DNA from: a bacterium
Lineage (GTDB): Bacteria > Electryoneota > Electryoneia > Electryoneales > Electryoneaceae
Assembly (NCBI GenBank): GCA_020444265.1
Contig: JAHLLH010000013.1
Location: 13,340 to 77,339, forward strand
Length of the DNA: 64,000 bases
Direction: 5' to 3'
The translations under genes and the position numbers were made by a program. Of the stretch, positions 58,995-64,000 are shown piece after piece. Under the pieces are notes generated by a model. The model worked only from the letters and a program-made list of their open reading frames with translations, was not told where the DNA came from and did not search any database. Numbering within the stretch: position 1 is the stretch's first letter; every line of letters starts with the position of its first letter.

Positions 58995-61253
58995 ATGGGC
59001 AATCGTGCTGCATACAACAATCGCTTATTCCTTGTCCTGAGCATCATGCTACCGGCAGTTTTAACTCTGTTGCTGATAGCCGGGACCTTTTTCTTCCTCT
59101 TCATTCCCGCCCTCGAAACGGATCTTCTCCAGGCACGTCGCGAAATGACACGTGAAACGTGCAACATTGGTTATAACCTCATTTCCGAGTACTACCAACG
59201 TTATCAGAATGGATCTCTAGCAGAGCAGGAAGCACAGGAACGTGCCTTGGCCCGACTGGAGGCCTTGCGGTTTGGCCCCGAAGGAAAAGACTATTTTTGG
59301 GTAAACACCGTTGAAGGTGGCATGGCGATGCACCCCTACCGGAAAGACCTGGTCGGCACCGACATGCTCAATTGGGAAGACCCGACCGGGAAGCAATTCA
59401 TCCGTGATTTTATCTGGGTTGTTCGGAACCAGGGTGAAGGATTTGTCGACTACCAATGGCAGTGGAAAGATGATTCCACCCGCATCGTCCCGAAAATTTC
59501 CTATGTCAAAGGCTTTGAACCCTGGGGCTGGATCATCGGCACCGGCATGTATATCGAGGACATTCATCAGCGAATAGCCAACACGACCCAACGGCTGGCT
59601 CGTGTTTTTGTGCTCATCTTCATGCTCATTGTCCTCCTCTCCATCGTCATCATCTTAAACGGTTTGCGAATCGACAAACATAGGCAGCTCTCTGAACAAG
59701 CCTTGCGGGCGAGCGAAGAGAAATTCCGTTCGTTGTTCGAAACGATGACAGAAGGGGTCTACATCCGGAGCATCGATGGCGAGTTGGTGGAGAGCAACCC
59801 TGCGTTCCAGAAAACCCTCGGCATTGAGGGAGAGGACTTATCCTCCTTCAATATCAGTCAGTTTTATTCTGATCCTGAGGAGTACAAGCGCTTCACCACG
59901 GAAGTGGAAGCCAATGGAATTGTCAGCAATTACCCGATGAAAGTTATCCGTAGGGATGGCACGCCCCTCCATGTATTGGTGACAGCAATTTTGCGCAATG
60001 ACGATGAGGGCAATCCCACCCAGGTGCAAGGAGTGGTGCGGGACGTTACAGAAACCAAGGAACTGGAAGAACGGTTGAACCAATCACAGAAGATGGAAGC
60101 TGTCGGCCGTCTCGCAGGTGGGATTGCGCACGACTTCAACAATCTTCTGACGGTAATCATCGGTCAAAGCGAACTGATGTTGCTCGAGAAAGAGAAGATC
60201 GGTGAGGATACAACCCATGTTGATGACGTCCTGAAATCTGCTTACCGCGCCACCGAACTTGTGGGGCAGCTCCTCGCCTTCAGCCGTCACCAGGTCATTG
60301 TACCCGTCCCCATGCGCATCAACGAGTCCCTCCGTCACCTGAGCAAGCTGCTCCACAGAACGCTCGGAGAGGATATCACGTTACGTCTGAACCTCCAGGA
60401 TGAGGTTCCCTGTATCCTGGCAGACCCACCGCAGCTTGACCAGGTCATTCTGAACCTCTGCATCAACTCACGCGACGCTATGCCTTCAGGTGGAGAGCTG
60501 AACGTCCGCACCTACCTCATCCCACCCGATGGTAAGAAGAACATTATAGACGGAATCCTCTATGATTCCGGAGTCGTCGTACTTGAAATTGAGGATAGTG
60601 GCATTGGGATTGATGAGGAAACTCTCCCACATATTTTTGAGCCCTTTTATACCACCAAATTGGAAAAGGGTGGTTCAGGGCTGGGCCTGTCCACGGTCTA
60701 TGGTATCGTGCGCAAGCTGAATGGTCAGATCACCGTGCAGTCCACCCCTGGAGAAGGAACCCGCTTCACTCTCCGATTCCCTGCCATTCTTTCCAAGGAA
60801 ACAAAGACTTCAGATATACACTCGCAAGAGGGAGTGGAGAATGGCGGCACAGAATCCATCCTTGTTGTTGAGGATGATCGTAACGTTCGCAGTATTACCA
60901 TACGCATCCTCCGCCAATTCGGGTACACGGTCCACGCAGTAGAGGATCCAGTGAAGGCACTGGATCTTGTGAAGAAGTTGCCAGAACCGGTAGACCTTCT
61001 GCTGACAGATATGATCATGCCGGGAATGAACGGCTTCGAACTGATGCACAAGCTACGAGCGATCTGGCCCACGACTCGTCTGATGATGATGTCCGCCTAT
61101 ACTCCTCAACAGGATGGCGGCGGAAAAGAAGAGAACCTGACCTTCGGGTACCTGCAAAAACCATTCGGTCCTGCGGCACTGACACGGAAGGTTCGGGAAA
61201 TCCTGGACACTTCGCTGGAATCATCCGGCAAACAAAAAACGTCCGGCGCATAA
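58995..61253 (+). CDS. Hybrid histidine kinase (sCache_2, PAS, HisKA, HATPase, REC)
   Basis: KDYFWV...MHPY...KISYVKGFEPWGWIIGTGMY Cache domain; AHDFNNLL; NLCINSRDAM, DSGIG, FEPFYTTK, GLGL; VVEDD...LLTDMIMP...KP receiver. Confidence 0.95.
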   Translation: MGNRAAYNNRLFLVLSIMLPAVLTLLLIAGTFFFLFIPALETDLLQARREMTRETCNIGYNLISEYYQRYQNGSLAEQEAQERALARLEALRFGPEGKDYFWVNTVEGGMAMHPYRKDLVGTDMLNWEDPTGKQFIRDFIWVVRNQGEGFVDYQWQWKDDSTRIVPKISYVKGFEPWGWIIGTGMYIEDIHQRIANTTQRLARVFVLIFMLIVLLSIVIILNGLRIDKHRQLSEQALRASEEKFRSLFETMTEGVYIRSIDGELVESNPAFQKTLGIEGEDLSSFNISQFYSDPEEYKRFTTEVEANGIVSNYPMKVIRRDGTPLHVLVTAILRNDDEGNPTQVQGVVRDVTETKELEERLNQSQKMEAVGRLAGGIAHDFNNLLTVIIGQSELMLLEKEKIGEDTTHVDDVLKSAYRATELVGQLLAFSRHQVIVPVPMRINESLRHLSKLLHRTLGEDITLRLNLQDEVPCILADPPQLDQVILNLCINSRDAMPSGGELNVRTYLIPPDGKKNIIDGILYDSGVVVLEIEDSGIGIDEETLPHIFEPFYTTKLEKGGSGLGLSTVYGIVRKLNGQITVQSTPGEGTRFTLRFPAILSKETKTSDIHSQEGVENGGTESILVVEDDRNVRSITIRILRQFGYTVHAVEDPVKALDLVKKLPEPVDLLLTDMIMPGMNGFELMHKLRAIWPTTRLMMMSAYTPQQDGGGKEENLTFGYLQKPFGPAALTRKVREILDTSLESSGKQKTSGA

Positions 61254-61286
61254 CACACCGGACGTTGAAACTCTGAAAATATCTGC

Positions 61287-63308
61287 TCACCTCACCAACA
61301 TCACCTTGCGGACCAGCGTACCCTCACCCGGTGCTGAGGCACGGATAAAGTAGATTCCGCTCGCATTGTCATGACAATCGAAGCTGAAGTTGTGAGATCC
61401 AGCGTTGTAGAACCCGTCGGCAAGAGTCGCAACCTGCTGACCGACAAGATTGTGCACGGTCACCCGAAGATCGGATGCCATCGGCAGAGTCACCGTCAGG
61501 CTTGTCGACGGATTAAACGGATTGGGCCAGGCAGAGCTCAAGTCAAATGACAACGGCTGGGTCCCTTCGCCTGGTCCCGCCACATCGTTCACGTGGCCTA
61601 GCAGGTAACGGACCGCTCGATCCATCATGGCGTTACGATGATCCTGAGTCGAAATCGCCTCGAATGGGAACCCGAACAGGAGTGTCCGGTAGGTTTCCGT
61701 GGTGTTATGCACGGCTGCCCACTGATCGGGGTTGAAATGCAACGCCGCTTCCCCACCGAGCAACTGCAGGGTACGTGTGATGCCTGAATTGTCTGCACCA
61801 TCGCCACCGGCAATGTAAAAGTCCAGCCCATTCCCGATGACATCGCCTTCCACGCCCACCACATGCATATTGCTGGTGTTGATGCCCTGGACCGCAGTGC
61901 CCATCATCGTCGCCAAGGTGGTGTTGAATAGTGCTGTTGGAGCGAAACTGCCGTTCATCCAGAGGTTTCCACCCCCTTCGAGGAAAGCTTCGAGCTCAGG
62001 CAGAACCTCGGCATCAAAGGTCATGCTTGTACCGAGGTACCAGATCACCGCTTCGATTGGCAGATCCGTAAACGTGGCAACGTTCAACTCGTCCGGCGAC
62101 CGTGGCCATACAGCCCAGCTCACTCCATCCTCACCGATCTCACCCGCCACTGCTTCAAGCGCGGTTGAGTAATACTCCGCGAAATCACCATTGGTGTCGC
62201 CATTGACCACCAACACCTGTCCGCTAGCGAGCACAAAGAAGGTGACCGAGTTGGTCAATTGCGTCAGGTTCTGGGAGGTAAACTGGAACGTCACTGCACC
62301 AGCAACGCCTGCATCATCAGCTGCAGTCGTGATGGACAGATCGATGGGGTAGTTCTCAGCAGAGGCGAGGTCAAGCGTTGCATCACCAGCCTGTTCTCCA
62401 TCGGGCAGCATATAGCTGAACTCCCACCCTTCAGGTAGATCCGATGCGACGGTGATGTCGTACGTATCGTCCTGTAGACCGAGGTTGGTAACATTCAGGG
62501 AGAAATCGGAACCCTCGCCGGGAGCAACAAGATTGGAAGTCTGAGTGGATTGCAGGGTGAAGTAGTAATCCGAACTCAACTCGCACTGCTCCGCCTGCAA
62601 TACTTCGCGGCCATTGTCGTTCTGCACAAAGCAAACGACATGGATGTTCTCGGGGTCGATCTCGATGCCACCGAGGCTTTCCGGCCAGGAGAAACTCGCC
62701 TGGAAGGTTTCGGTGCTGTTTGCCTCGATCGCGAATGCCAGTCCGTGTGCATCGGGTGCCATCGAGACAACATCGTTATGGAACTCGCTAACACCAGTCG
62801 GGCTGGTGTAGTGGTCCCAGTAGTTTGTCAGCAGAGCAAAACGAATCTTGTAATTACCGCTGATCGCCGTTTCAGCACTGGTCACAGTTGCTGTGACATC
62901 AATGCTGTTGCCTGTTCCAACCGCCATCATATCAATGCTGATTGGACTTTCAATGGCGATGCGTGTGTTGTAGGCGTTCAGCATCTGGGATGTGACACCG
63001 GGATGCAGGCCACCGATCAAGCCATCAACTTCCAGATCCGGCCACGCTCCGACACCGTAATACCCCTCACGAATCCCATGGCAGGGGTCGCCATTGGACC
63101 AGGGATCGCCGCCATCATGGTAGACCATCGGGACGATGTTTTCCGCCCGTACAGGATCTGTTACAAAACCGTAATACACCGGCGCCGCCGATGCACACGG
63201 TCCTCACCAGTATGCAAACCACTCTTCGAACAACACTTTCCTTGGGAAAGCCTGCGAAGAAGCGGTTAGCGCCATGAGAATGGTCACACCTAGCAGGAAA
63301 CGTTTCAT
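61287..63308 (-). CDS. Secreted Omp28/thioredoxin-like selenoprotein (Sec at codon 35, TGA 63204-63206) with Ig-like domains and T9SS-type C-terminal domain, 673 aa
   Basis: Extending the 630-aa ORF upstream in frame gives MKRFLLGVTILMALTASSQA-FPRKVLFEEWFAYW(TGA)GPCASAAPVYYG. Also a purine-rich RBS, cis-Pro motif YGVGAWP, VVCFVQN...EVLQA Omp28-like end and AWPNPFNP...RKVMLVR. Confidence 0.88.
63166..63203 (-). promoter_or_regulatory. Putative bacterial SECIS element
   Basis: Directly 3' of the UGA: GGACCGU-G-UGCA-UCGGC-[GGC]-GCCGG-UGUA-UU-ACGGUUU, a roughly 16-bp stem with a small G-containing apical loop. Confidence 0.75.
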
Positions 63309-63508
63309 CTCTACCCCCATCTCCGTAGCAACTCTCTCAGCTCATCCTTGACAGACACTCGCCTGCCGTATCAAGTGAAAAAGGTAGCATTCCTGGGAGG
63401 GCGACATAAACCACTGTTTGCAAAAGAACAACAGCGACATCCGGATTAAACTCTCCGAACTTACAGCAGGTCCCGTTTCGATGGCCGCCGGTTTGCCTGA
63501 AAACTCCG

Positions 63509-64000
63509 CTAAAAGCGGTAATCCATCCCGATGTAGTTATTCACAGGGCTGTTGCGGAAGGGGAATTGATCACGCAGATGACGGCCGACGAACAGCGACA
63601 TGCCACCCTCATCGCGTTGAATGTTGAGTCGAAGACGTATATCGGACCGTTGACGCCAACGGTTTGGTTGGCTTTCGGAAAGCATCATGATGTCGTAGCG
63701 GAAGACGAGCTCGGCTTGGAAGGTGCGGTTCAAGGGCAGCACAGCGACCCCATAGGTGTTCCCGATGGCCTTCCAGCTGGGAACATTGCCAAACAATTCC
63801 GAAACGCCATTGCCACTGATGATTGGGCCTGCGTACACATAACCGTCCAGCTGAGGTTTTGCAAGTTTACGCGCTCGGATGGCTGGCATAGCCTTCTCCG
63901 CCGGGTTGATGGTCCCAATGCCGAGGTCCCATTGCGTGTAGTAGGTCGCCCATCGGCTGTGACGATCAATTTCGTGGAAACACCACCGTTCAAACCAGGA
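63509..64000 (-). CDS. Hypothetical probable outer-membrane beta-barrel protein, 5' end outside the window
   Basis: The frame is open from 64000 to the stop at 63509; amphipathic strands; ends YIGMDYRF (BAM-type terminal Phe). Confidence 0.6.
   Translation of the reverse strand, partial: SWFERWCFHEIDRHSRWATYYTQWDLGIGTINPAEKAMPAIRARKLAKPQLDGYVYAGPIISGNGVSELFGNVPSWKAIGNTYGVAVLPLNRTFQAELVFRYDIMMLSESQPNRWRQRSDIRLRLNIQRDEGGMSLFVGRHLRDQFPFRNSPVNNYIGMDYRF

Follow-up and report, generated by a model that had tools for sequence, protein, structure and literature searches.

A predicted HBP35-like selenoprotein with a type IX secretion sorting domain in a bacterium of the phylum Electryoneota

Described relatives of the protein

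HBP35, a 35-kDa hemin-binding protein of Porphyromonas gingivalis, is a cargo protein of the system for type IX secretion (T9SS). Recombinant HBP35 reduces insulin faster than Escherichia coli thioredoxin (Trx), and a C48S/C51S mutant is inactive. Haem binding of HBP35 maps to residues 135-344, outside the Trx motif (PMC2907840; PMC10202324), and the growth phenotype described for it is in haem use (PMC2907840). Here we describe a gene of related layout in a 64,000-nucleotide stretch of DNA (hereafter the window) from the bacterial assembly GCA_020444265.1 (contig JAHLLH010000013.1, positions 13,340 to 77,339; Electryoneota, family Electryoneaceae). The gene lies on the minus strand at 63308-61287 and contains one in-frame TGA codon. 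We propose, with a probability of about 0.85, that it encodes a 673-residue exported HBP35-like selenoprotein, which would act as an extracytoplasmic thiol/disulfide oxidoreductase delivered by way of the T9SS. The evidence from the sequence that the TGA stands for selenocysteine (Sec, U) is strong, and from the domain content we infer the redox function and the surface location.

The predicted protein resembles HBP35 in combining a Trx fold with an Omp28/immunoglobulin-like (Ig-like) sandwich module in the same active-site register, and in the order of its parts, with a signal peptide first, then the module and last a type A T9SS sorting domain. The active Cys48 of HBP35 aligns with U35 of the window protein. 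Unlike the window protein, HBP35 has Cys at this position, is 344 amino acids (aa) long and originates from Bacteroidota. It is also without the additional Ig-like domain and the amidotransferase-like domain found in the window protein.

A second relative is the NCBIfam family NF045500, named “Omp28-related selenoprotein”. This family corresponds to the “Hypothetical protein GOS_C” with a UxxC motif reported by Zhang & Gladyshev in 2008 (PMC13188914 Table 1; PMC2398784). In the GOS data, 74 Sec-containing and 312 Cys-containing sequences were found, and a Trx-like fold was noted (PMC2398784). The passages on GOS_C in these two sources are silent on secretion, the T9SS and HBP35 (PMC2398784; PMC13188914). 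Like GOS_C, the window protein would be a UxxC selenoprotein in which a Trx-like fold is followed by an Omp28-like region, and it has many Cys homologues. The NF045500 model aligns to residues 76-244 of the window protein, and to a Sec-containing paralogue in the same genome (see below) from residue 22, across the TGA. Neither protein reached the cut-off of 200 bits, the scores being 20.1 for the window protein and 45.6 for the paralogue. Among 61 related genomes, which belong to the same family and phylum, none had a match over this cut-off, and the best score was 63 bits. Judged by sequence, the window protein is a distant relative of the NF045500 family that lies outside that model.

The window protein differs also from the Omp28 lipoprotein family. 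It scored 12.8 against a cut-off of 150 with the NCBIfam lipoprotein model, its leader is without a lipobox Cys, and its Omp28 domain is one of five parts that make up a T9SS cargo. Selenoproteins of the UxxC type that are listed in a 2026 review include Sec thioredoxin, DsbA-like, DsbG-like and thiol:disulfide interchange proteins (PMC13188914 Table 1). As in these proteins, several of which are extracytoplasmic by homology, the attacking Cys in the CxxC motif of a Trx fold would be replaced by Sec in the window protein, which belongs to a different sequence family. In the portions of the literature that our searches returned, no T9SS sorting domain is reported for any of them. The same searches returned nothing that joins selenoproteins with the T9SS, or Omp28 with a selenoprotein, and the available portion of the Haft 2022 preprint mentions neither Omp28 nor the T9SS. 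A preliminary description of this DNA, made from the letters alone, had called the location of the protein unusual for Sec chemistry. This is only partly fair, since GOS_C was predicted in 2008 and several thiol:disulfide selenoproteins of periplasmic type are already listed in the review (PMC13188914 Table 1). As far as our searches show, what is new here is the T9SS sorting domain on a selenoprotein, which has not yet been discussed in print; the kind of selenoprotein itself is already known.

Gene layout, domains and export

The frame of the gene runs from an ATG at 63306-63308 to a true stop codon, again a TGA, at 61287-61289 (minus strand, as for all parts of the gene given below). Its sole interruption is the TGA at 63206-63204, in the place of residue 35. 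The list of open reading frames (ORFs) obtained with translation table 11 contains only 61287-63179, a 630-aa product with a GTG start, and the public protein collection holds the product of the window (P0002) only in this truncated form. Reading through the TGA yields a product of 673 residues that begins with MKRFLLGVTILMALTASSQA-FPRKVLFEEWFAYW-U-GPCASAAP. A GGAG sequence and a run of G lie 7-16 nucleotides (nt) upstream of the ATG at 63308. A second in-frame ATG is located four codons further upstream (63320-63318), and of the two we favour the ATG at 63308 as the probable start codon. The preliminary description had already extended the ORF from 63179 to this ATG, with a ribosome-binding site, a signal peptide and one TGA, and had expected automated annotation to truncate the gene. 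These claims hold.

Residues 1-20 (63249-63308) form a predicted signal peptide, with a helix at residues 2-15 in the structural model at a low predicted local distance difference test (pLDDT) score. Cleavage may take place before FPR. An alignment of 58 homologues showed a hydrophobic leader followed by a conserved A-[YF]-P-R motif, in which R23 is nearly invariant. The leader is followed by a Trx-like domain (residues 22-118; 62955-63245), assigned from models, structure matches and the family profile, and by an Omp28-type beta-sandwich (residues 120-246; 62571-62951), which packs against the Trx domain in the way seen in HBP35. The latter assignment is based on PF11551 and on the structures 2r2c and 5y1a. 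The Pfam model Omp28 (PF11551) matched residues 83-246 with 41.4 bits, over its cut-off of 34.9. E28, the U/C column and Y84 are invariant in the 58 modules, and V25, C38, H64, D68, P69, P90, D95, G96 and R116 are nearly invariant, as is R23.

The AlphaFold model of residues 1-246 has a pLDDT of 95.3. It shows a strand at about residues 25-32, U35-x-x-C38 at the opening of a helix (residues 36-49), and P90 just before a strand at residues 91-94, after which the beta-sandwich follows. In the model this layout is the Trx arrangement, with E28 on the first strand and the conserved P90. The best structure match was HBP35 (5y1a; Foldseek E-value 4e-14, template modelling score 0.74). A VIA comparison with 5y1a gave a Z score of 25.2 and a root mean square deviation of 2.3 over 222 residues (model residues 19-246), at 17% identity. 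The next matches were Atu2684 (2axo) and the Omp28 domain 2r2c (Foldseek E-value 2.5e-6). The family profile matched the sequence of 5y1a with an E-value of 1.1e-6 and placed the EWCGYC motif of HBP35 on the U/C column. The Trx-like motif, the cis-Pro motif (YGVGAWP) and the Omp28-like domain that the preliminary description had pointed out are thus all found again in the models and the homologues.

The Omp28-type sandwich is followed by a second Ig-like beta-sandwich (residues 250-361; 62226-62561). It is NPCBM_assoc/DUF11-like and all-beta, with a pLDDT of about 87-95, and the Pfam NPCBM_assoc match covers residues 262-296. Residues 364-572 (61593-62219) form an alpha/beta domain with a class-I glutamine-amidotransferase-like fold (ThuA/IFT52-N/STM3548-like). 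VIA matched it to STM3548 (2gk3, Z score 17.8), IFT52-N (5fmr, Z score 16.2) and a ThuA-like protein (1t0b, Z score 14.5). For residues 355-592 there was no match in Pfam, and the only hits in the protein Atlas were unnamed clusters with scores no higher than 0.90, which were not used.

The protein ends with a type A T9SS sorting domain (residues 594-673, WPNPFNP ... KVMLVR; 61290-61529), modelled as a beta-sandwich over residues 601-671 in a full-length model with a pLDDT of 83.9. The domain passed the NCBIfam model TIGR04183 with 28.7 bits against a cut-off of 23. The Ig-like domain and the PNPFNP sorting domain named in the preliminary description were both recovered. The PNPFN motif (P595-N599) is nearly invariant in 20 full-length relatives, and a sorting-domain-like tail stands at the end of all the 23 complete full-length relatives. 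The host genome (4.33 Mb in 19 contigs, 94% complete) also encodes PorU (693.6 bits against a cut-off of 420) and SprA (537 bits against 200).

A simple motif screen of the host genome found about 145 ORFs with a sorting-domain-like tail. A leader upstream of an in-frame TGA was present in only three of the 145, namely the window gene and two further genes with a TGA-xx-C extension. One is the Sec paralogue. The other, an AhpC/TSA-type gene, is a second candidate for a T9SS-type selenoprotein (G000:C11, TGA at 439696-439698 on the minus strand; locus L161:100-885:-). Its predicted product of 262 aa has a signal peptide, an AhpC/TSA/Redoxin match (PF00578, 60.7 bits), the motif FFGYS-U-PAC and a type A sorting domain (TIGR04183, 36.3 bits). 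A hairpin of -20.2 kcal/mol follows its UGA.

From these parts, a route and an activity can be proposed. The N-terminal signal peptide would lead the chain across the inner membrane by the Sec translocon (the secretion apparatus, not selenocysteine). The type A C-terminal domain would then hand the folded protein to the T9SS, consisting of the SprA translocon, a PorV-like shuttle and the PorU sortase. After cleavage of the C-terminal domain by this sortase, the protein would either stay on the surface of the cell or be released. By fold and sequence, Sec35 of the HBP35-like module (residues 21-246) would occupy the position of Cys48, which is the attacking residue in HBP35, and Cys38 the position of the resolving Cys. 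By homology to HBP35, the Sec35/Cys38 pair may exchange with disulfides or with other chalcogen or metal substrates, and the activity would be that of a thiol/disulfide (selenenylsulfide) oxidoreductase. Sec would provide a better nucleophile at ambient pH and less inactivation by over-oxidation, while the Ig-like and amidotransferase-like domains may position or bind the substrate.

Several observations speak against this proposal. The Pfam Thioredoxin model (PF00085) gave 14 bits, not reaching its cut-off of 23.5, and the Trx model TIGR01068 gave 14.9, not reaching 96.8; the Trx assignment therefore rests on the fold and the profile. The Pfam sorting-domain model Por_Secre_tail (PF18962) matched residues 594-669 with 24.7 bits, below its cut-off of 27, and the PorV-like match in the host genome, whose gene adjoins porU, scored 204.6 bits, below the cut-off of 250. 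Nor is it evident what would reduce a Sec/Cys pair that is exposed at the surface. Finally, the role for which HBP35 is best documented is not redox but the use of haem, by way of its C-terminal part.

Some of these points fit a different reading, in which the protein is a true selenoprotein that resides in the periplasm or outer membrane like Omp28, or whose main task is the capture of a ligand (haem, metal or polysulfide), as in HBP35, while the U-x-x-C pair binds a metal or chalcogen and exchanges no disulfides. The HBP35 phenotype in haem use, with the haem site outside the Trx motif (PMC2907840), the sorting-domain score below the Pfam cut-off and the lack of a known extracellular reductant are in its favour. 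The sequencing runs that contain this region are labelled freshwater sediment, where sulfide, polysulfide and metals may be plausible ligands. We nevertheless consider this reading unlikely, though it is the strongest competitor. The Trx geometry of the model is canonical, with UxxC at the N-terminus of a helix, the conserved P90 and an invariant Glu on the first strand. The Trx motif of HBP35 is catalytically active in vitro (PMC2907840), and the passing of TIGR04183 together with the tail in 23 of 23 relatives argues for sorting by the T9SS.

Decoding of the in-frame TGA

We searched the first 246 residues against the 61 related genomes in six frames and obtained 126 matches in 56 genomes. 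By hand count, 45 matches contain exactly one TGA and 81 contain none, the two counts adding up to the 126 matches. In an alignment of 59 loci to the query (45 TGA and 14 Cys forms), the TGA falls in the column of residue 35 in all of the 45 TGA homologues, and Cys occupies this column in all of the 14 Cys homologues. The 45 Sec-form genes are spread over 23 of the 61 genomes. The six-frame search of the host genome revealed two paralogues, one of either form. The Sec paralogue (G000:C9:151252-151944; L024:187-2211:-) has the motif NYG-U-PYC and 675 aa. The Cys paralogue (G000:C1:343143-343862; L023:58-2250:-) has SST-C-APC, 731-736 aa and a differing middle region. Both carry a leader and a T9SS sorting domain.

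A tree of 58 modules, in which the U/C column was left out, required at least eight changes between Sec and Cys, and branches with good support make at least five of these necessary. The window protein belongs to an all-Sec clade of 14 in this tree. Cys forms are under-sampled in the tree and the alignment, and one Cys form (L046) was omitted, as no start was found.

Some members deviate in motif or arrangement. In one homologue (L057; G008:C17:47988-49313), C-U-G-G-S replaces U-x-x-C, with the partner Cys immediately before Sec and Ser in the place of the resolving Cys. Tandem members also occur, namely two adjacent Sec forms at G010:C14:56177-58522 and three consecutive Cys forms at G013:C2:1555470-1560677.

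The host genome encodes the complete Sec machinery. A tRNA-Sec was detected with 59.3 bits against a gathering score of 47, and its anticodon is tca according to ARAGORN. The selA (541.7 bits), selB (331.5 bits) and selD (362.4 bits) matches are all above their curated cut-offs. Relatives of the SelA protein of this genome carry the label Calditrichaeota bacterium at 62% identity, and others at 42-59% include KSB1, Calditrichota and Coriobacteriia. The selD gene (G000:C4:219402-220331; L016) holds one in-frame TGA and is therefore itself a selenoprotein gene. Among the related genomes, selB is above the cut-off in 55 of 61. All but one of the 23 genomes in which TGA forms occur have a selB above the cut-off, and the exception (G031) has selB as two pieces at contig ends. 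Five genomes without an over-cut-off selB (G009, G017, G050, G054 and G058) have eight family matches, all of them Cys forms. Ten relatives (G018, G019, G023, G024, G028, G029, G033, G036, G039 and G042) have two full-length selB genes above the cut-off. Four of the ten (G024, G033, G036 and G039) also carry Sec forms with a second, two-hairpin structure downstream of the TGA.

In bacteria, the selenocysteine insertion sequence (SECIS) is a hairpin at a characteristic short distance after the UGA. A hairpin that fits this distance begins after ten unpaired bases past the UGA of the window gene. Its core, CAUCGGC-GGC-GCCGGUG (63176-63194), was found by folding and covariation, and the lower stem can be extended over 63204-63165 to an 18-pair helix of -29.7 kcal/mol. 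The annotated GTG start at 63179 falls within the 3′ arm of the hairpin. In the proposed mechanism, SelB together with Sec-tRNA(Sec) would recognise this hairpin, 10 nt past UGA-35, and Sec would be inserted in place of termination.

RNAalifold, run unguided, recovered the same hairpin with compensatory changes in seven of seven pairs from 19 Sec sequences of the clade of the window, a set (A1) chosen by eye from the 45 for the window-type hairpin. In the eight-pair structure, 86.8% of the cells are paired against 66.6% in shuffles. Its covariation is 0.593, against 0.202 in shuffles (0 of 500 reach the observed value) and 0.06-0.19 with slid partners. Cys homologues form on average 3.0 of the eight pairs (n = 14), against 6.9 in the Sec group. 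The fold energy of the region +3 to +48 is -14.3 kcal/mol in Sec forms (n = 45) against -9.7 kcal/mol in Cys forms (n = 14; p = 0.0007), where the relatives compared are not independent. One Cys form (L033) provides a natural control; different codons specify the identical peptide (CGPCASAAP) there, and by our own reading two of the eight pairs form. The remaining 26 Sec sequences comprise 12 in a second set (A6) of the two-hairpin type and 14 outside the covariation analysis. This other clade of the family has two hairpins of different shape, with compensatory change in 7 of 15 pairs.

The structure resembles bacterial SECIS elements, for example the one in E. coli fdhF, in being a hairpin of the coding sequence shortly past the UGA, whose apical loops contain G/U (GUC or GGC; GGUC in L034) and lie about 20 nt from the UGA. 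Unlike such elements, it has a shorter loop in the minimum-energy fold, and the two differently shaped hairpins of the other clade are a further difference. Some results here weaken the case for Sec. The hairpin of the window taken alone is modest (z score -2.0; 11 of 200 shuffles fold equally well), and its minimum-energy loop is only 3 nt long (GGC). The Cys column was inspected in 14 of the 81 Cys forms. Rfam had no match around the TGA; to our knowledge Rfam has no general model for the SECIS elements of bacteria, and the non-match is therefore no evidence against a SECIS.

The TGA might instead be a genuine stop, with the gene starting at GTG 63179 and the 34 upstream codons being non-coding or the decayed remnant of a pseudogenised N-terminus. 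Gene callers do yield exactly the 630-aa protein, and TGA is the commonest stop of the genome. However, the truncated product would have a T9SS sorting domain and yet no signal peptide, and in the model its first residue would lie within helix 1 of a Trx domain that is well folded. The 58 homologues conserve what the 34 upstream codons encode, from the leader and A-[YF]-P-R to E28 and the U/C column. A genuine stop would also leave unexplained the 45 TGAs in a single column and a covarying hairpin whose 3′ arm includes the GTG. We therefore regard this reading as very improbable.

Just as improbable is a decoding of the TGA other than as Sec, by near-cognate read-through or a reassigned code that gives Trp, Gly or Cys. 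Low-level read-through of UGA by tRNA-Trp or tRNA-Cys does occur in bacteria. As the preliminary description had stated, TGA is a normal stop elsewhere; it closes 19 of the 38 stop-to-stop frames of at least 250 aa in the window and 644 of the 1487 frames of at least 400 aa in the whole genome, the window gene included. The non-TGA homologues examined have Cys at the column (14 of 14), the TGA forms are confined to genomes with selB, and the covarying hairpin stands at the distance of a bacterial SECIS, all of which argues against such a decoding.

Least credible is the explanation that the TGA is a TGC or TGT misread in sequencing or assembly, in an ordinary HBP35-like cargo of the Cys form, for which the metagenome-type assembly and the common Cys forms (81 of 126 matches) might speak. 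Logan contigs of four runs show zero differences over 62900-63400 at a word depth of 57-77, with TGA and not TGC or TGT; the runs stem from one freshwater-sediment study that is possibly the source of the window and are thus not fully independent. The TGA also recurs at the same column in 44 other genes of 22 other genomes, and the downstream hairpin is specific to TGA forms.

The preliminary description had concluded that the gene encodes an exported Sec redox protein. Its Sec reading is supported by the machinery, the column, the hairpin and the base call, and together with the Trx fold this part of the conclusion stands. The export by the T9SS and the redox activity are predictions from the domains.

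Family annotation, neighbouring genes and implications

The family is large. A Cys-only profile matched 11,908 cluster representatives at E-values of 0.001 or less, 6,367 at 1e-10 or less and 1,545 at 1e-30 or less. Seven of the best 150 representatives (P0170, P0175, P0218, P0237, P0271, P0275 and P0279) have no leader; their second or third residue already corresponds to profile positions 42-50. They start just past the CxxC column and have a T9SS tail, and they are therefore probably Sec forms truncated by gene callers. Indeed, one of the seven is the product of a TGA-containing homologue (L042) that begins right after its TGA. Sec forms of this large family are thus likely to be stored in truncated form, and the NCBI selenoprotein model misses the clade (none of the 61 genomes). 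Word-indexed protein searches were shallow (5 and 12 hits) and carry little weight on the range of the family; a distant homologue of the window protein from these searches is labelled Krumholzibacteria.

Downstream of the gene, an intrinsic-terminator-like hairpin with a T run (61238-61266, minus strand) begins 21 nt past the stop. It has 13 pairs and the tail TTTTGTTTGC. It sits between the selenoprotein gene and a convergent histidine-kinase gene and is common to both. In the terminator-hairpin scan overall, sites were no more numerous than in shuffles. The convergent gene (58995-61253, plus strand) encodes a 752-aa hybrid sensor histidine kinase, in which Cache-like, PAS, HisKA, HATPase and receiver domains were recognised by eye from the translation. 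On the strand of the selenoprotein gene and upstream of it, a gene that occupies about 63509-64000 of the window and continues to about 64462 (L022 2439-3392, minus strand) encodes a protein of 317 aa. This protein has a leader-like segment and a C-terminus (...GMDYRF) reminiscent of an outer-membrane barrel, and no Pfam family was found for it. The upstream gene was not found beside the homologues (29 loci, 1.5-kb flanks), and the gene context therefore gives no functional clue.

The HBP35-like Sec proteins, together with at least one AhpC/TSA-type Sec protein with a sorting domain, may belong to a set of selenoenzymes, spread over a whole phylum, that sediment-dwelling bacteria of the FCB group deliver to the cell surface by the T9SS. 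We advance this wider reading tentatively and give it somewhat less than an even chance. If it is true, selenium redox chemistry would take place outside the cell and might be recharged by environmental sulfide or thiols. Possible targets would be disulfide-rich detrital proteins, polysulfide and metal(loid)s. Surface-displayed selenoproteins of bacteria would then form a new location class, and the abundant marine GOS_C of 2008 would be the same invention as HBP35.

In the 58 sampled sequences of this family, Sec and Cys have been exchanged at least eight times, which makes the family well suited for studying, in nature, under what conditions Sec is of advantage. The protein of the window ties together the GOS_C/Omp28-related selenoprotein, the HBP35 cargo and type IX secretion, which stand apart in the literature searched. 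This three-way tie points to selenium redox chemistry at the cell surface.

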